Below, in pieces: positions 1 through 28,737 of a stretch of 64,000 bases of DNA (position 1 is the stretch's first letter; the number at the start of each line of letters is the position of its first letter). Both the position numbers and the translations under genes were made by a program. The stretch lies in assembly GCA_020279385.1 (NCBI GenBank), contig GCA_020279385.1_4762.2. One strand, written 5' to 3'. The notes beneath the pieces were generated by a model. The model was given only the letters and a program-made list of their open reading frames with translations, searched no databases and was not told the DNA's origin. The DNA comes from a phage.

Positions 1-564
1 TTTAAACCATCCAGACTCTGTACCAAAGTTAATGGTTTTTTGGAACATCCGATCTACTTCTTGTTTGCTGTACACATTCAATTCTGACGGACTAGGCTTA
101 TCACCTTCGTGATACATGCGATATGAATATGCCAATGCACCATCAGCGTTATAACCATAGGTTTTTACAGTCGGAACAACGTTAGAACCATAAGTAAAAT
201 CCAACCCACGAGCATGATTTATACCGCTAGGATGGGGAATATGCAAAGCCAATGCTAGATGACCATCCATATCATTAGTACGAAATGCCCCAAATTTATC
301 AAGATTTCGTGCGGTCGGGTCATCGAAATAGTTTGCGGTATTACTCCACATAAGGTCATCTGCAACCACACGACCTTTTACATTAACGCTCTTGTCATAA
401 ACTGGAGGGCAACTTAAATTAACAATTTGCCCACCATCATTTTTTGTAAGCAGATATTGGTCTGCTAAGTTAATTGCCAACTCTCCCGGATTCATCGTAC
501 CAGCATCCGGTTTACGTCCGGCGGTGCTAGTGCGTTTAAACTGGATTCTGTTTAAATCTGCCAT
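1..564 (-). CDS. 37: Long tail fibre distal subunit gp37, N-terminal 188 codons (partial; continues past window start)
   Basis: Minus-strand ATG at 564..562; translation MADLNRIQFKRTSTAGRKPDAGTMNPGELAINL... resembles T4 gp37 N-terminus as recalled; no stop before position 1; absent from ORF track because truncated. Confidence 0.8.
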   Translation of the reverse strand, partial: MADLNRIQFKRTSTAGRKPDAGTMNPGELAINLADQYLLTKNDGGQIVNLSCPPVYDKSVNVKGRVVADDLMWSNTANYFDDPTARNLDKFGAFRTNDMDGHLALALHIPHPSGINHARGLDFTYGSNVVPTVKTYGYNADGALAYSYRMYHEGDKPSPSELNVYSKQEVDRMFQKTINFGTESGWFK

Positions 565-605
565 TTTATAAAATCCTTAAACGGTTATTAGAATAATATT
601 ATTTA

Positions 606-630
606 GAAAAGCGGGGAGAATCCCCGCTAA
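606..630 (-). terminator. Rho-independent terminator after gene 36
   Basis: Minus-strand GCGGGGATTCTCCCCGC hairpin followed by TTTTCT. Confidence 0.5.
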
Positions 631-632
631 TA

Positions 633-2123
633 TTAGAAAGTACCAAAATCAATTACCGCATTGAGCGGAACCGCGCCAACCTCGCCAGGAGTTGGTTTAT
701 GTCCTTCGTGGTATAATTCAAAGGTATCGGTGTCCTGAGTATTGTCACGAGATTTAACGAAAATAATTTTAGAATCATGTGTGATTCCTAGTTTCTCGTG
801 CGCTTTAATATCACTAACACGATGAATCATTGCTGTACCATTTAAGCTATTAAGTCCAGCATAGCAATTATCACCATTATAGTTAGATTCTGCGGTATGA
901 ACGCCGTTCGCAGCAGGAACCGTCAAAGCGCCAGTCATGGTATCGCCAGTCACATTAACATAGCGAATATCAGCCAATTTACGGTGATCTACATAGTTCC
1001 ATGCAGTCCATGATTCATTAGAACACGAACGCCAGCACATCGGATGGTCAATAGATTCAGGATAATAAACCTGAACAATTCGACGAGTACCGACCGCATC
1101 TTCTGGGCGATATACCATCAAAACGCCGTTATAATAGCTATCAGACGGTTTATTAGTACCTGACCCAGCATTTTCCACACGATAGATACCGCGATTAATA
1201 AGAGTGTTCCAATCAACGTTTCCAATGATGGTTGGATTTGCTACCATTGATTTTTTCTCAAAGTAGCTCAAACGAACCAATTCATTAGGACCAGCCGGAT
1301 CGTTTGTCGCCAACATTCTAGGCGCTTGTAAGTTACCTTCCATAATATCACCAGCACGTTTAACCTGTGCATCATTGGTGACATTGCCTAGTCCAACATC
1401 GGCTTTAGTTGGTTTATTGTTGGTGTGATAAAAACTACCTTCTTTGCCATTAACAAAAATGGTAGGCTCATCTTTACTTCGGAAGACCAACGTGTCAAGA
1501 ACGTTACCATAATAGATCTTAGTCGCATCAAAATTAATTAAATCACGTTCCCTTGCAATTAATTTCGAATCAACCGATAGTTTAACAGTGACAGTGTTTA
1601 AATTATATGTTCCTGTGAGGGTATCACCGCGACGAGACACCAAATCTAAATCATTATTCGTTGGTTTATTAACAGGGCTATAGACGCGTTGACCAGTGTC
1701 TTTAATGGTTGTCCCTTCGATGGTCCCTTTAGTTTTAAAATCACCTGTGGTAGTGTCAATATAAGCCATGATAACATCATCACGAGCATTAACAAAACCA
1801 ATAGATTTCCACGAATGCAACCCCCAACTTACACCGTCAAAGTTAGCCGCATCACTATTGCCTTTAAAGATCCCGTTCTTTTTGGTTTCTCCACCGGATG
1901 CGCTACCTACGCTTAAACCTTCCTCAAAATGGACCAGTTTCTGAAATGTACCCCCTTCGGATGCACTAACAGCATCAAAATCGGCAGCCGAAGGTTTATC
2001 AAAAGCGGTATAGATTTTATGACCTTTGTAGAAAAGCTGATCACCCGCTGGCTGGATCGTCAAGTTTCCTTGCGTCCAAATGGGAGATCCGCCTACAGTA
2101 GATCCATGTTTCAAATCTGCCAT
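633..2123 (-). CDS. 36: Long tail fibre distal-half connector gp36 (enlarged, 496 aa)
   Basis: N-terminus MADLKHGSTVGGSPIWTQGN...FYKGHKIY matches T4 gp36 as recalled (MADLKVGSTTGGSVIWHQGN...LYKSFKIY); synteny between 35 and 37. Confidence 0.85.
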   Translation of the reverse strand: MADLKHGSTVGGSPIWTQGNLTIQPAGDQLFYKGHKIYTAFDKPSAADFDAVSASEGGTFQKLVHFEEGLSVGSASGGETKKNGIFKGNSDAANFDGVSWGLHSWKSIGFVNARDDVIMAYIDTTTGDFKTKGTIEGTTIKDTGQRVYSPVNKPTNNDLDLVSRRGDTLTGTYNLNTVTVKLSVDSKLIARERDLINFDATKIYYGNVLDTLVFRSKDEPTIFVNGKEGSFYHTNNKPTKADVGLGNVTNDAQVKRAGDIMEGNLQAPRMLATNDPAGPNELVRLSYFEKKSMVANPTIIGNVDWNTLINRGIYRVENAGSGTNKPSDSYYNGVLMVYRPEDAVGTRRIVQVYYPESIDHPMCWRSCSNESWTAWNYVDHRKLADIRYVNVTGDTMTGALTVPAANGVHTAESNYNGDNCYAGLNSLNGTAMIHRVSDIKAHEKLGITHDSKIIFVKSRDNTQDTDTFELYHEGHKPTPGEVGAVPLNAVIDFGTF

Positions 2124-2156
2124 AAAGTAACCTCAAAAATTAGTTATAGTTCCGAG

Positions 2157-2164
2157 TATTTATA
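2157..2164 (-). promoter_or_regulatory. T4-type late promoter (TATAAATA) for gene 36
   Basis: Exact TATAAATA on minus strand 34 nt upstream of the gp36 start. Confidence 0.5.
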
Positions 2165-2282
2165 GAATGTTAACAAAATATCGCTTCGCGACGTGCCGTA
2201 GGCACTGACTACTTTTTAACCGAAACAAATTTTTTATTATTCTAAAGATCTTTCTTCGTTTTGGTTATGTTTTAACCAACTG

Positions 2283-2314
2283 TATAAAAATAAAGCCGAC
2301 CACGAGGATCGGCG
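2283..2314 (-). terminator. Rho-independent terminator after gene 35
   Basis: Minus-strand hairpin GCCGATCCTCGTGGTCGGC followed by TTTATTTTTA. Confidence 0.45.
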
Positions 2315-2325
2315 TGTTAAAAATG

Positions 2326-3465
2326 TTAATCAACATCGAACTCTTTAAAGTTGTTGGATGTGACATGTTTATTGTCTCTAGGTAGTTTAAGAAGACTCAT
2401 AACAGGGTTAGTAAAATCACCGTTATCCTGAATATGAGTTGTTCTAACACCATTAACACCAAAGGAAGTAGGACCAGTAGTTTTGACGACTCCACTGATC
2501 GGCGTTATTAGTATGTTTCTAATTTTAACAATACCTTCGTTGGAGTTGGTTGGATATCTGATACAACCAGTTACTACACTATCAACTCCTTCCGGTACGG
2601 TATAGACGGCTTCAAACTTTTCCCATTGATCTTTCTGGCTGGCATTATAACGAACGCCAGTTTTATATTGTCCATCGGTGAAGTAGTTGTGATAGAAACG
2701 CGCTGTTACGTTGGCTGCGGCTGCGGCACTATCACGGAACAATTCAAAGGATATTGATAGTTTGTCACCTGCCTTTATGTTAAAATATTCAAGTGGTGCG
2801 CTGATCTCATCATGAGGCCATTGTATTAGCTCGAAATGTTCGGCATCTTCGCTAACATATTCAACCGGATAATCTAAAAATCGTTGTGGTGTTCCTGTTA
2901 TAGCAAGATCATCTATAGTATCATAGACTTTCTCAATTTGTATAGATGAATCTTGTCCTTCCCCGTGGGTCGCTTGCATCCCTTCGCACACAATTTTACC
3001 CATTTTAGTAGAATAAATTGCTGCATAGGATACACGAGGCATTTGCTGTAACAAAATATGATTCGGGAATGATACAGATCCCATCTTAGAAAACACATCA
3101 TCGCTTATCGGATCTGCAAACAATTCTCCATGCGTTGCCATCGCAATGATATAGTCACCTTTCAGCAAAGAAAGATAATCACGCATTGCCAAAACAGCAC
3201 CGCGACCATAGAATACCTTTTCTTCGTGTAGTTGTCCAGTTGGAGTAAGAACTTTAAAATTTAGGCCATTTTCATAGCCAGTGCCAACGATCTCCACTCC
3301 ATTAAATCTAATTCTTGCTGGTTTGGTAGAATCCGCATTAGATCCGCGCACTTCCAGCTTATACATCACAGAGTTATTTTCTGAAATGCTGGTAAATGTC
3401 GCAGAGTCTTCGTCGAAATGCGCAAACCTAATTCCAGTGTTGCGTAATTCTATCTCTTGTGTCAT
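2326..3465 (-). CDS. 35: Long tail fibre hinge protein gp35
   Basis: 379 aa ORF between gp34 and gp36; size and position match T4 gp35 (372 aa). Confidence 0.65.
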   Translation of the reverse strand: MTQEIELRNTGIRFAHFDEDSATFTSISENNSVMYKLEVRGSNADSTKPARIRFNGVEIVGTGYENGLNFKVLTPTGQLHEEKVFYGRGAVLAMRDYLSLLKGDYIIAMATHGELFADPISDDVFSKMGSVSFPNHILLQQMPRVSYAAIYSTKMGKIVCEGMQATHGEGQDSSIQIEKVYDTIDDLAITGTPQRFLDYPVEYVSEDAEHFELIQWPHDEISAPLEYFNIKAGDKLSISFELFRDSAAAAANVTARFYHNYFTDGQYKTGVRYNASQKDQWEKFEAVYTVPEGVDSVVTGCIRYPTNSNEGIVKIRNILITPISGVVKTTGPTSFGVNGVRTTHIQDNGDFTNPVMSLLKLPRDNKHVTSNNFKEFDVD

Positions 3466-3498
3466 AATAACCCCATAGGGGGCTTTCGCCCCCTTTAA

Positions 3499-6400
3499 TT
3501 AGTCTTCCCAGATAAAATCTACGGTACGAGTCAAATTATTGGCAATAATTTTAACATTACCAACCTTGATCCAATCACGAACCGTCATAGAGTTCATCAA
3601 ACCACCTTCGGCAACCACTGCCCCGATTTCCTGAGCGGTAGGCTTGTTCTGTTTGGTGTAAATTTCGCCCCATGCGGTCCATTGACCATCTGTACCAGAA
3701 CGGATATAATGCTTATGAGTACCATCAGGCGACCAGATTTGGGTAAGGCCGTTTTCGTCAGTACCCCATTGCATCAATGTACCATTTTTCTTTTCTGGGT
3801 AGGTTTCTTTGATGTTTTGGGTAGTTACTCGCATGTTCCAGAAGCCAATGTTACCAATTGCTGGCGCAGTAGTAGCGATCGCTTCATGCTTAACGGATAC
3901 AATAGACGCATTATCCATAATCAATTTACCAGTCATTGTATCACCAGCATTCTTAACAAACTGACGATTAAGAACTTCGTCTGCGTTTCCTGCGTGGACG
4001 ATCTGATATTTCTGTCCGGCAATCTCTGTAGTAAGCGTCTGATAACCTGCTTTGATGTTAACACTTCCACCGTGACCGATATTCAGCATACCATCTGGGG
4101 AACGAGTCATTGCCGGATTAGACTGGTCAACAATGTATAAACCGCCTTGTTTCGCATACAGGTTACGACCTGCAATAAAGTCTCTATATGCTGTCGCGTC
4201 GCCATTGTGTTCCATAGCAAAGGCGTAATGCTCGACTAATCCACCATCATTGATTTTACCGAAAGCGATAGCATTACTATCAACAACTTGAGATGTTCCA
4301 GTGCCACCAACGATAATAGACCATGAGTTTTCCATACCTTCCGATGCGGTTGCGCCATGCAGAGTAATTCCGGTGTGACCGTCAACTCCACGCTCACCCA
4401 ACACCAGATGACCATTACTCGGATCATCAGTCGAGTTCTTAGTCACAAACAGAGTTTCAAAGGAACCTGATTTTAAGCACTCTAAATCGCCCTTCACGTT
4501 AACGTTTTTATTAAACGTGTAATTGCTCTCAATGGTCTGGTCAATGTCTCTACGCGCCCATTTAGCGGCCTCTACGTCACCCAATTTCAAACTATTCTGA
4601 GCGGTTGCCATCTTAGGTAAGAAATTAGCAAGTGCGTAGTTTAATCCTTTAGGGGTAACAGCAATTCCGTCATGCTGGTAGTTTCCTAGTTCTTGAGTAG
4701 AACCTTGCAGATTGTCACCAACAAAACAGTTTTCCTGAGTAGCAACTTTCAAGAAACCACGACGAGCTTCGGTTGCTTTCCATGTATCCTCTGTCTGAAC
4801 AACATATTTGAAGTTCTTCGGAGAAATTGCTACATTAGCCAGTGTACCAGCCACGGTTTCGGCTTGAGTACCAACTCGGATAATACCTTCTTTACCTTCG
4901 GTGGCCTTTTTGCCTTGCAGCTTTTTAGGAGTAATGATCGTAGCGTCATCTTCTCCTGCGTCTGTAAGCTGAGTAGTTGCAACTTTAGCGACACCTTTTG
5001 TATCTTCGGTTGCATCAAGACCGCTGATCATGATACCCTGCCACAAGTCACCAGTAAGGTTAAGCCCCTGAGTCGGGTCTACTTTCAAACGCTGCGCATT
5101 CTCAAAGAAGGTTTTAATCTTCAATGGGGTAGAAATGCGAGCATCGTCAAGACCTGCGTCAAATTCCGGTTGAGTTGCAATTTCTGCTAAACCATGTAAA
5201 GTTTCCGTTGCGCGGCGAGTATGCAGCTTTTTAGGCGTGATGATATGGTTATCACTTTGACCTAAGTTTGTTTCTTCCTGAGTTGCAATTTCAGCGATAC
5301 CAGTGCGCGATTCGGTAGCAGTACGTTTCGTTAGCGTGCGAGTCGTGATTAGTAAAGCATCTTGCGGGGTTGATTCTGTAGCCCCTTGCACTTCCGCGTC
5401 AGTTGCCAGATAACCAACACCACGGGAAGTTTCGGTCGCCTTGACTTCGTTGATGTTTTGTGGCGTAACAATTTTAACATGGTCGTTGATGTTATAGATC
5501 CCTGTACCAGCTTCACCACGTCTAGCGGCAGCACTACCGCCAGCCTGAACAATTTCAGCAATACCAGCGAGATCTTCGGAAGCGCGACGTTCTTCTAATT
5601 TCTTAGGAGTAATAGCGCGGGTATCGTCTAAACCTTCATTGGTTTCTTGCTGGGTTGCAATTTCCATCACGCCACGACGGGCTTCGGTAGCAACACAATC
5701 ATTTAACTTTTTAGGCGTAACGATAACATCATCCAGGAAGCTGGAACCAGTATCTTGATGCGTTTCCGCTTGAGTTGCAATGCGAGCAATACCGCGTCGA
5801 GTTTCGTTGGCTGTTTTGTTAGCCAGAACCTTTGGAGTCACCGCAACTTCGTCGCTAGGATTATCTTCATGGTTTTTGTTTGTTTCATCCTGGGTAGCCA
5901 GTGCAATTACACCAACACGATCTTTACGAGTCGGATCTACTCGTTCTACAATCGGGTGAGCATGTGCCACCAACCAGTATTTCTTACCATCATCACCTTC
6001 TGAATAAGAGAACTCCAGATAAGGTACATAATCATTTGCAGCGTTGAAAGACAATTCAGACACTCCCGTCCATGTATCGGTCCCATTGAATGGGTACTCG
6101 CTACGCTTAGGAAACTGAACCATGTTTTTCTGAATAAGGATTTTTGTATCCTCTGTGGCGGTGATAATACGGCAATTCTGGTTTCCGTGCATATACTGCA
6201 TAGAAACTTGAATACGATCACCCGGCTCGACATTGGTTGGTAAAGTCAAGGTAACATCACGTTCACCAAATACTGCAACATAGCTATTAGGGGATAAGCG
6301 AGTATCACTAATGATAGGATTCAAGCGAACAGACTGATCACCATCCCACAAACGCCATAAGTTTTCCGGTTTGTCAAATATGAATACACCATGACCGCTA

Positions 6401-25745: not shown

Positions 25746-26069
25746 ATGACCGTTAAAACTCCTAAAGCACTTGGTGATTATGTAATTATCGAAGCTAAAG
25801 CAGAAAGCGCAGGGACCGAAGTAAAAAGCTCTATGGGGATCATTATTGAGCAAAAGCGCACTATGGGTGAGATTCCGCTGGTAGGTAAGATTATTGATAT
25901 TGGTGAAACGGTAGATAAAGAATTGCTGGGTAAAACTGTTCTACTGCCACACGGAAAGATGAATAAAGTTCCTCATCCAGACGTTATTAACGGCGTTAAG
26001 AAGGAAGAAGAGATCGACCTGAAATGGACTGTAACACACAAACAGAATATTGTGGTAGTTTACGGTTAA
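25746..26069 (+). CDS. 31: gp31 co-chaperonin (GroES-like)
   Basis: 107 aa; GDYVII...KVPHPDV resembles T4 gp31 as recalled (GEYVIL...NVPHPFV). Confidence 0.8.
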   Translation: MTVKTPKALGDYVIIEAKAESAGTEVKSSMGIIIEQKRTMGEIPLVGKIIDIGETVDKELLGKTVLLPHGKMNKVPHPDVINGVKKEEEIDLKWTVTHKQNIVVVYG

Positions 26070-26078
26070 TGATTTTAA

Positions 26079-26108
26079 ACGGCGGGATTATTTCCCGCCT
26101 ATATTTTG
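26079..26108 (+). terminator. Stem-loop / terminator after gene 31
   Basis: GGCGGGATTATTTCCCGCC hairpin followed by TATATTTT. Confidence 0.55.
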
Positions 26109-26151
26109 GCTATATGATTTTGTAAGTTATTGATTATTAAGGAATTTTATT

Positions 26152-26316
26152 ATGAAAACTATGAATGTAAACATCCACGAAATCCATACCGAAGTATTCA
26201 CCGAAGAAGACCAGTTTGGTGTATGGGTAAATCCTCATTCGATTACTATCGATATTCCTAATGACGATTATGATCCGTTCTCTCTGATTAGCGAGATTAG
26301 TTTCAATGACTTCTGA
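26152..26316 (+). CDS. Hypothetical small protein (54 aa)
   Basis: Short ORF with upstream AAGGAA; overlaps next gene start. Confidence 0.3.
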   Translation: MKTMNVNIHEIHTEVFTEEDQFGVWVNPHSITIDIPNDDYDPFSLISEISFNDF

Positions 26317-26785
26317 AATTGATATCTATGCGGGTGGACCTTATCCATCTGGTGAATTGAGTAATTTCAATAAAAGACCATTCCGTCTATTTGGTTGCGA
26401 TATTAACAGCACAGAAGGATTTTTACAGGGGCTAAGATTTAAGAACCCTCAGAGACAAAGAGAAATCTTTTTGATGCACGGTGGCAAAGCAAAAAGAACC
26501 GGAAGAACTGAAAAGATTGAGAATCACATGTTATATTTTCAGGGTCGCCCGATTCATCGAATGAGTGAGCATTATTACAGACTGGTACATCTGGCATTTG
26601 TTACGATGGCACGGAATAACCCAGAATTTTGTAAAGCATTACTCGCTACCGGAAATAAGAAATTACGTCATAGCATAGGTGGAACTGATCCGTTAAAGAC
26701 TATATTGACTGAATCGGAATTTTGTAGTATCCTCAATGATATTCGTGAACGTTTAACAAAACGAGGTGAAAATGTCAATTCTTAA
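26306..26785 (+). CDS. Hypothetical protein, possibly NADAR/YbiA-like
   Basis: 159 aa; N-terminal IYAGGPYPSGELSNF...FLQGLRF loosely resembles the NADAR (DUF1768) N-terminal block; weak assignment. Confidence 0.3.
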   Translation: MTSEIDIYAGGPYPSGELSNFNKRPFRLFGCDINSTEGFLQGLRFKNPQRQREIFLMHGGKAKRTGRTEKIENHMLYFQGRPIHRMSEHYYRLVHLAFVTMARNNPEFCKALLATGNKKLRHSIGGTDPLKTILTESEFCSILNDIRERLTKRGENVNS

Positions 26786-28268
26786 TATCATTAACCAGCT
26801 TGCAGCGACCGACAAAACATCGCTGAAAGAAAAGATTCTGAAAGAATCCGCGAGCAATGAAACGCTGAAAGAATGCTTTTATCTGGCATATTGCAAACAG
26901 GTTACGTTTGGCGTAAAGAAATACGATAAACCATCGCGCTATTCGTCTGTATTGTCTTTATCCGGTGCATTACAGGTCTTTAAAAATAAACTTGCCACGC
27001 GTCAAGTAACTGGTAATGCAGCATTACAGCTAGTTACCGATACTCTGACTTGCTTGTCAGAGGATGATGCTAAAGTTGCAATGATGGTCCTGAATCGTGA
27101 TCTGGAATGCGGTTGTTCCGCCACCACTGCAAACAAGGTATGGAAGAAACTGATCCCCCAGCAGCCGTGTCACCTTGCATCGTCATATTCTGATAAGGCT
27201 ATTGCTAATATCAAGTATCCGGCGTATGCACAACTTAAAAGCGATGGTGCTCGTGGTATGGCTGATATTGACGGGGAAACATTAGCAATCTATACCCGTT
27301 CAGGTAATACCTATCAGGGACTTGATGATTTGTTTGCGGTTTTAGAGCGTCTACGAGGCCGTGGAATTGTTCTAGATGGCGAATTGGTATATATGCCTAC
27401 CCTTTCGCAAACACCAGCGCAGAACTTCGTTGAGAGCGTTTATGATGGTACTCTGTCATGGATATTTGAAGAAGAGGAAATGCCATTAACGCCAGTAGCG
27501 GAAGCAGTAAAAGAATCCGTTGTTGCAGACCGTCAGACCGGAAATGGTATCCTCAACAAATCACTTAAAGGAACTATTCCAAAAGAAGAAGCCCAATGTA
27601 TTGTTTATACTGTCTGGGATGTTATCGACCGTGATGTGTATTACGGAAACGAGAAAGCAACGAAGCAATATAAAGATCGATTCGAAGAACTAAAACAGAT
27701 TGTTGAAGAACTTAACGATCCTCGTGTTCAGATAATCGAAAATACTGTAGTTAACAATATCGATGAAGCTCGCGAAGTATATCATCGCTATGTAAACATG
27801 GGCTTAGAAGGTATTATCCTTAAAAATTTACATGGTGTATTTGAAGATCGTCGCAGTAAAGATCAGGTTAAATTTAAAGAAGTGATTGACTTCGACGCTG
27901 AAATTGTTGATGTATATCCGCATAGTAAAGATCCTAATAAGGTAGGCGGTTTTACTGTCCGTAGTGCGTGCGGACGAATGATGACTAACACCGGATCGGG
28001 ATTAACCGACACCACAACCGAAAAAGGTGATGATGGTATTGAACGTGTAATTCCGTTCGATCGTCGAAATGAACTCGACCGAGAAATGTTATGGGCTGAC
28101 CGTCATAACCTGATTGGAAAAGTCATTGAGATGACATGCAACGGGTACATTCGCAGCAAATCACGTAAAGAAGATGAACCGGAGTTCTCTTTATTTCTCC
28201 CGATCATCAAACGTATTCGCTACGACAAGACCACTGCAAATACAGTAAAAGAGGTATTCGATGTGTGA
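26772..28268 (+). CDS. 30: ATP-dependent DNA ligase
   Basis: Ligase motif I KYPAYAQLKSDGARG and LDGELVY resemble T4 gp30 as recalled (KFPAFAQLKADGARC, IDGELVY); start set at ATG after GAGGTGA. Confidence 0.9.
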   Translation: MSILNIINQLAATDKTSLKEKILKESASNETLKECFYLAYCKQVTFGVKKYDKPSRYSSVLSLSGALQVFKNKLATRQVTGNAALQLVTDTLTCLSEDDAKVAMMVLNRDLECGCSATTANKVWKKLIPQQPCHLASSYSDKAIANIKYPAYAQLKSDGARGMADIDGETLAIYTRSGNTYQGLDDLFAVLERLRGRGIVLDGELVYMPTLSQTPAQNFVESVYDGTLSWIFEEEEMPLTPVAEAVKESVVADRQTGNGILNKSLKGTIPKEEAQCIVYTVWDVIDRDVYYGNEKATKQYKDRFEELKQIVEELNDPRVQIIENTVVNNIDEAREVYHRYVNMGLEGIILKNLHGVFEDRRSKDQVKFKEVIDFDAEIVDVYPHSKDPNKVGGFTVRSACGRMMTNTGSGLTDTTTEKGDDGIERVIPFDRRNELDREMLWADRHNLIGKVIEMTCNGYIRSKSRKEDEPEFSLFLPIIKRIRYDKTTANTVKEVFDV

Positions 28269-28737
28269 TAATGAAGGGGCGAAAGCCCCTAAACCTAAAA
28301 AATTGTCAAAGAAAGAGCAACGCCAGATCCTGAAAATGAAATACGGTGGACGTTGTGCCTATTGTGGCGAGGAACTAGGGGATCGCTGGCACGCAGACCA
28401 CATCAAACCAGTATTGCGACGCTCAAAAGTAGTCTATGATGAAAATGGACGAATTGCCCGTAATGATGATGGATCGTGGAAGTATAAGGTTGTAGGAATG
28501 CATAAACCGGAACATGATATACTTGATAACATGAATCCGTCGTGTGTGCAATGCAATCTTTATAAAAGCTGTATGGGCTTAGAATACTGGCGTAAGTGTA
28601 TACGCGAGAACTTCCAGAAATACATTCAGCGCAATATGGGGTTGCGAGCGGCTAAACGCTTTGGCTTACTGTCAATCCACGACCAGCCAGTAGAATTTTA
28701 TTTCGAAAAGTATGAGCGCGAGCATCAAGAAAAATAA
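28261..28737 (+). CDS. HNH endonuclease (small, free-standing)
   Basis: CAYCGEELGDRWHADHIKP...NMNPSCVQCNLYK: HNH His-Me finger with Cys pairs. Confidence 0.75.
   Translation: MCDNEGAKAPKPKKLSKKEQRQILKMKYGGRCAYCGEELGDRWHADHIKPVLRRSKVVYDENGRIARNDDGSWKYKVVGMHKPEHDILDNMNPSCVQCNLYKSCMGLEYWRKCIRENFQKYIQRNMGLRAAKRFGLLSIHDQPVEFYFEKYEREHQEK

Follow-up and report, generated by a model that had tools for sequence, protein, structure and literature searches.

The gene examined here lies within a 64,000-nucleotide stretch of phage DNA (the window). On the + strand, an ATG-to-stop open reading frame (ORF) of 159 amino acids (aa) was found at 26306..26785, exactly the coordinates given in a preliminary description of this DNA, and the two blocks quoted in that description were present in the translation, IYAGGPYPSGELSNF as residues 7-21 and GFLQGLRF as residues 38-45. 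The description had also correctly placed the ORF between genes 31 and 30. A gene 31 co-chaperonin homolog (25746..26069; a weak Cpn10 match, gp31 in the RB49 annotation) lies on one side, and gene 30, encoding an ATP-dependent DNA ligase (26772..28268, + strand; PF01068, E=4.3e-22, and RB49 annotation), lies on the other. The ORF is the phage gene 30.3 and is preceded by a small + strand gene of 54 aa, named 31.-1 in RB49 (26152..26316; PHROG 15277, E=3.7e-42, unknown function). The 3' end of 31.-1 overlaps the start of 30.3 by 11 nt, which suggests that the two genes share a transcription unit and are probably translationally coupled. At its other end, 30.3 contains the ligase ATG (26772) 14 nt inside its own 3' end, and a GAGG ribosome-binding site for the ligase was found at 26763-26766. 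Directly 3' of the ligase gene, and overlapping it by 8 nt, is a + strand ORF of 158 aa (28261-28737; PF01844, E=1e-5; HNH endonuclease in the RB49 annotation) that looks like a free-standing homing-endonuclease-type insertion beside gene 30.

Promoter and terminator scans around 30.3 yielded numbers of sites that were not above those of shuffled sequence. A G+C-rich, terminator-like hairpin on the + strand at 26081-26099, with a 7 bp stem that includes 6 GC pairs and is followed by TATATTTT, is plausibly the sole element from these scans that looks credible; it is positioned directly 3' of gene 31 and ahead of the 31.-1/30.3/30 block. No ADP-ribosyltransferase (ART) or toxin gene adjoins 30.3, its neighbors being 31.-1 and the DNA ligase gene. 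When the window was searched for a second NADAR copy, the single gp30.3 ORF was found, and a search of the window for a homolog of T4 AdfA (gp61.2) gave no match better than E=0.6.

The 2.6-kb region around the gene was 98-99% identical at the nucleotide level to that of 60 RB49-like phages (genus Krischvirus, family Straboviridae). The window protein is 100% identical to RB49 gp30.3 (CAD79437, record AJ550428), which is named 30.3 with the product "hypothetical protein" in the RefSeq record of RB49, and the 30.3 protein is kept at at least 95% identity in 60 Krischvirus records. We compared the interval between genes 31 and 30 in the window (25746-28268) to that of T4 (positions 1-5429 of the T4 record). 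The T4 interval holds ten annotated ORFs, a lysis-inhibition gene (presumably rIII) and nine others that include 30.3, whereas the interval in the window phage is strongly compressed and holds only 31.-1 and 30.3. Of the genes in the T4 variable block between rIII and 30, only 30.3 is matched by a gene in the 31-30 interval here, and the Krischvirus 30.3 abuts the ligase gene directly, without the 30.2 and 30.1 genes that intervene in T4. That 30.3 is the sole gene of the T4 block kept in so compressed an interval suggests selection for this gene. Among the close nucleotide matches of the window were TB34 and SAP, two Krischvirus phages that are described in a 2026 report (PMC13390438) as more than 99.9% identical yet differing in DNA chemistry. 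In that report, the cytosines of one phage are canonical and those of the other fully modified, and neither phage carries a known gene for an hmC synthase or a glucosyltransferase.

The protein was readily assigned to a family. It matched PF08010 (Phage_30_3) with 132.5 bits, compared to a cutoff of 36 (E=1.2e-38), over positions 2-138 of the 138 in the profile, and it matched PHROG 652 with E=2.5e-45. Homologs were detected by tblastn in 1510 of 50,697 phage records, many of them, judging from their names, T4-like phages of Escherichia, Klebsiella, Acinetobacter, Aeromonas, and Vibrio hosts, and when 1.84 billion cluster representatives were searched with a profile, 1665 matched at E<=0.001. 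The closest phage proteins outside Krischvirus, from Acinetobacter phages, were approximately 50% identical, and T4 gp30.3 was 38% identical over its full length (151 columns; E=3e-30 by BLASTP). The Shine-Dalgarno sequence upstream of 30.3 is weak (GAG), and this was the only point in favor of a chance ORF that is not a gene, a reading to which we give no credence in view of the PF08010 match, the homologs in 1510 phage records, and the confident fold prediction described below.

The preliminary description had called attention to a loose resemblance to NADAR proteins and had called it weak. The resemblance is real, and at the level of the single sequence it is weak: the match to PF08719, the NADAR family proper, covered residues 14-120 with E=0.021 and 15.5 bits, which is under the gathering threshold of 35.1 bits for membership in that family and explains why the resemblance had felt weak. 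The window protein is thus a member of PF08010, the sister family, rather than of PF08719. The similarity became clear when family profiles were compared, which was the check that the description had proposed. A profile built from 12 family sequences matched Escherichia coli YbiA in hhalign with 90.7% probability (E=1.3e-6), and a profile of 68 sequences did so with 93.3% probability (E=2.8e-7) over 129 columns. Individually, 14 of the 68 family members matched PF08719 at E<=0.01, the best with E=1.1e-6. A clear alternative family, which the description had set against its NADAR reading, does exist in PF08010, but since this family forms the phage branch within the NADAR superfamily, the assignment confirms the NADAR idea.

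Several other matches were obtained during these searches. A single-sequence search of the PDB gave a match to the D-alanine carrier-protein ligase DltA (7vhv; E=3.8e-4, residues 45-151), and a weak NCBIfam DltA match was also seen. This reading was dropped: the match was absent when the family profile was used, where YbiA was the only match (E=0.12), and structural searches gave it no support. The NCBIfam model "DS32_2 NADAR family anti-phage protein" was matched with 13.8 bits, compared to a threshold of 240, which fits the NADAR fold and not membership in that family. Weak matches to PF22075 (DUF6939) were obtained from 4 of the 68 members of the gp30.3 family (best E=8.8e-4), and PF22075 may be another unrecognized relative with a NADAR fold.

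The predicted structure led to the same assignment. An AlphaFold2 (AF2) model made from the family alignment, the second check proposed at the outset, had a mean pLDDT of 94.2 and a pTM of 0.89, and its only significant neighbors in the PDB were NADARs: YbiA, the Phytophthora NADAR, and the Geobacter lovleyi DarG1 NADAR, the same three structures that have been reported as neighbors of T4 AdfN (PMC11825919). When the model was searched against the PDB with Foldseek, a probability of 1.00 was reached only by YbiA (2b3w, E=2.5e-6) and by the Phytophthora NADAR with ADP-ribose (8bau, E=1e-3), and the other 23 matches listed all had E>3. These results demonstrate that the window protein has the NADAR fold, as a stand-alone domain that belongs to the phage subfamily. 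In the model, residues 136-155 (26711..26770, + strand) form a C-terminal alpha-helix, which is encoded here with no premature stop, whereas the allele of RB69, which is DarTG1 sensitive, lacks the corresponding helix.

NADARs have been sorted into three groups according to one residue of the last beta-strand, which, as set out in two reports (PMC11543638, PMC11125620), is Glu in the YbiA type, Asp in the BC4488/DarT-associated type, and His in the phage type, whose members are also called gp30.3 proteins. Schuller et al. (2023) found that NADARs hydrolyze the guanine-N2-ADP-ribose made by DarT1 and defined the active-site set as E, K, and D/E/H. We located the corresponding residues in the window protein. 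Glu37 (codon GAA, 26414..26416, + strand) aligned pairwise with the catalytic Glu36 of T4 AdfN and was present in all of the 68 family members aligned; its equivalent, E43 in the Phytophthora NADAR, contacts the distal ribose. His122 (codon CAT, 26669..26671, + strand) lies in the last beta-strand (about residues 119-122 in the model), was likewise invariant in all 68 members, and was aligned by hhalign with the Glu of "LVEH" in YbiA. The idea of a NADAR/YbiA-like protein is therefore supported by profile, predicted structure, and catalytic residues together, and the protein is, with near certainty, a phage-type NADAR orthologous to AdfN.

His122 also bears on whether the protein could be a housekeeping N-glycosidase of the YbiA type that acts on riboflavin-pathway intermediates and has no role in defense. 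E. coli YbiA, which is annotated "N-glycosidase YbiA," was the top structural match, and PMC11125620 cites a riboflavin role for some NADARs. However, the last-strand Glu by which the YbiA subfamily is defined is replaced by His122, which excludes assignment to that subfamily; the gp30.3 family occurs mostly in phages of the T4 superfamily (PMC11825919 and the tblastn matches); and the phenotype of the T4 ortholog is specific to DarTG1. We consider a housekeeping role extremely unlikely. YbiA differs as well in its setting, a LexA-controlled host operon in the dinG-ybiB neighborhood, and the window protein's PF08719 score falls below the threshold for the family of YbiA and the Phytophthora NADAR. 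The window protein also differs from DarG1, the NADAR antitoxin of DarTG1 (E. coli C7; Geobacter lovleyi, PDB 8bat). The last strand of DarG1 carries Asp where the window protein carries His, the N-terminal extensions of DarG1 form a positively charged DNA channel whereas the window protein is a 159-aa core domain only, and the DarG1 gene adjoins darT1 whereas the window gene is an orphan. The features that characterize DarG1 as a BC4488-type NADAR, namely Asp, an N-terminal extension, and an adjacent darT1, were thus all lacking.

Compared to the catalytic Glu and the last-strand His, the third active-site position was less typical. Seven residues past the Glu, at the position of the phosphate-coordinating Lys (K43 in T4, K95 in the E. 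coli C7 NADAR, and K50 in PnNADAR), the window protein has Arg44 (codon AGA, 26435..26437, + strand). Arg44 is likewise basic, and the difference is one of catalytic detail, by which homology is not decided. Among 170 aligned domains, 159 had K in this column, 6 had R, and 5 had a gap or another residue. The only R44 rows that kept both Glu37 and His122 were the window protein, the Krischvirus cluster representative P0001, P0002 (69% identical to the window protein), and P0144; the remaining two R-bearing rows were second-copy domains that also lacked the catalytic Glu. Over the whole protein, a residue shared by at least 80% of the family was replaced at just three positions: T36 and F78, where 61 of 68 members have Met and Trp, respectively, and R44, where 65 of 68 have Lys. 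In the E. coli C7 DarG1-NADAR, a K95R change kept in-vitro hydrolysis but abolished in-vivo rescue from DarT1 (PMC11543638), from which it follows that the in-vivo efficiency of the R44 enzyme could be reduced or altered.

Taken further, the K95R result would make the Krischvirus gene an attenuated or decaying allele, akin to the truncated allele of RB69, in which the K44R difference cripples function in vivo and leaves RB49-like phages sensitive to DarTG1 or reliant on another factor. The rarity of R in this column, in 6 of 170 domains of which two are second copies also without the catalytic Glu, points the same way. Such decay is nevertheless difficult to reconcile with an ORF that is full length and at least 95% identical in protein sequence across 60 Krischvirus records, with the sharing of R44 by the 69% identical P0002 together with E37 and H122, a sign that an enzyme with Arg at this site is under purifying selection, and with the retention of 30.3 alone from the T4 rIII-30 block between 31 and 30. 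We regard an attenuated allele as quite improbable. Since R44 is kept with E37 and H122 in a 69% identical relative and 60 genomes carry an intact ORF, this residue would, judged from these alignments, be a tolerated or adaptive variant of the lineage and not a sign of decay. More tentatively, and as an idea that we consider unlikely, R44, as a fixed and selected change, and T36, which is unique to this lineage, could mark an AdfN that has been retuned in Krischvirus, for instance to another variant of DarT1, to ADP-ribose on another base or another nucleic acid, or to the DNA modification state of these phages, which is reported to be unusual and variable. If so, the Krischvirus AdfN would be more than a plain equivalent of the T4 protein, and R44 would be a natural counterexample to the laboratory K95R result in DarG1.

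Departures at the active site were also seen in metagenomic relatives of a different architecture. P0014, P0022, P0031, P0058, and P0087 contained two or three tandem gp30.3 domains, or fusions to other regions, with lengths of up to 559 aa, and in P0014, P0031, and P0058 one copy had its catalytic Glu replaced (by A or Q), with the Lys sometimes lost too. These Glu-less tandem copies may be pseudo-enzymes or DNA-binding copies.

The function of the T4 ortholog has already been published. Purified T4 gp30.3 removed ADP-ribose (ADPr) from guanine in vitro but not from thymine (PMC11125620, Toxins 2024). The T4 30.3 ORF (positions 2498-2956 of the T4 record) encodes 152 aa, whereas the construct in that report is given as "residues 1-208," a mismatch that may reflect a different start, a tag, or a typographical error. 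Johannesman et al. (Nat Commun 2025, PMC11825919) mapped the DarTG1 resistance of T4 and T2 to 30.3, renamed the gene adfN, for "anti-DarT factor NADAR," and found it both necessary and sufficient for T4 counter-defense against DarTG1. In the same study, AdfN was impaired by E36A, by K43A, and by an RB69-like truncation that removed the C-terminal helix; T4 AdfN de-ADP-ribosylated DNA, did not bind DarT1, and did not counter DarTG2; and its full function was obtained only during T-even infection. A partner factor may be required by T4 AdfN. Transposon sequencing, in an independent preprint (bioRxiv 10.1101/2025.11.20.689424), likewise showed that adfN is conditionally essential when the host carries DarTG1. 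The window gene is thus the long-annotated 30.3, with an ortholog whose function was already in print, which the preliminary description had missed. Its proposal of a candidate counter-defense enzyme that reverses DNA ADP-ribosylation nonetheless agrees with the published function of this ortholog (PMC11825919, PMC11125620), by analogy to which the window protein is probably such an enzyme; the published experiments on the T4 ortholog also bear out the third check that the description had proposed, protection against a DarT-type toxin.

The window protein and T4 AdfN share orthology, the gene 31-30 locus, a core-only NADAR fold, the catalytic Glu, the phage-type His, and the C-terminal helix. 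They differ in R44 for K43 of T4, in Thr36 for the Met before the catalytic Glu, and in a C-terminus that is 7 aa longer in the window protein. By analogy to the T4 protein, we consider it likely that the window protein carries out the same reaction in the same role; the identity of 38%, R44, T36, and the dependence of T4 AdfN on T-even infection are caveats to this claim. The main substrate could instead be something other than DNA modified by DarT1, such as guanine-ADPr in RNA, adducts made by pierisin-, ScARP-, or YarT-like toxins, or soluble ADPr-derived immune signals. Guanine-ADPr in RNA is also removed by every NADAR family tested so far (cited in PMC12945103), a separate ART-YbiA toxin-antitoxin pair (YarT) exists (PMC11125620), and the atypical R44 and T36 beside the catalytic Glu could reflect an altered substrate. 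Set against this, counter-defense against DarTG1 is the only genetic phenotype known for the gp30.3 family, and E37 and H122 are identical to those of the T4 enzyme, and we think another main substrate unlikely.

By homology to the T4 protein and DarG1, the window protein would be an early-expressed, stand-alone glycohydrolase. Early in infection, it would bind ADP-ribose that had been placed on guanine N2 in replicating phage DNA by a DarT1-type ADP-ribosyltransferase of the host. The distal ribose would be flanked by Glu37 and His122 and the diphosphate held by the basic residue at position 44. Hydrolysis of the N-glycosidic bond between ribose and guanine would then return the DNA to its unmodified state and allow replication to proceed. 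The protein would thereby act as an "orphan antitoxin" whose target is the product of the toxin, the toxin itself being left unbound. As for the T4 protein, thymine ADP-ribosylation by DarT2 should not be reversed.

Two other phage-encoded NADARs, AdfN(Bas32) and AdfN(Bas60), likewise counter DarTG1 (PMC11825919). As described in that study, they were acquired independently and lie on other branches of the NADAR tree, and they are set apart from the window protein here on the basis of that description. Unlike the T4-type protein, they neutralize DarT1 even without infection (PMC11825919). RB49 and Krischvirus are not mentioned in the AdfN paper (PMC11825919) and were not among the phages tested there on DarTG1, Bas46/47 in that study being relatives of RB69, and our literature search joining DarTG or AdfN with Krischvirus or RB49 returned nothing relevant. 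The gene itself was already known: its family, fold, chemistry, and counter-defense role were published between 2023 and 2025, and the exact protein is in GenBank (AJ550428). As both family and role are in print, nothing conceptually new comes from this gene. The assignment means that the NADAR-type "orphan antitoxin" with which T4 counters DarTG1 is also present in RB49-like phages, which bears on predicting which therapeutic or model phages escape E. coli strains that carry DarTG.
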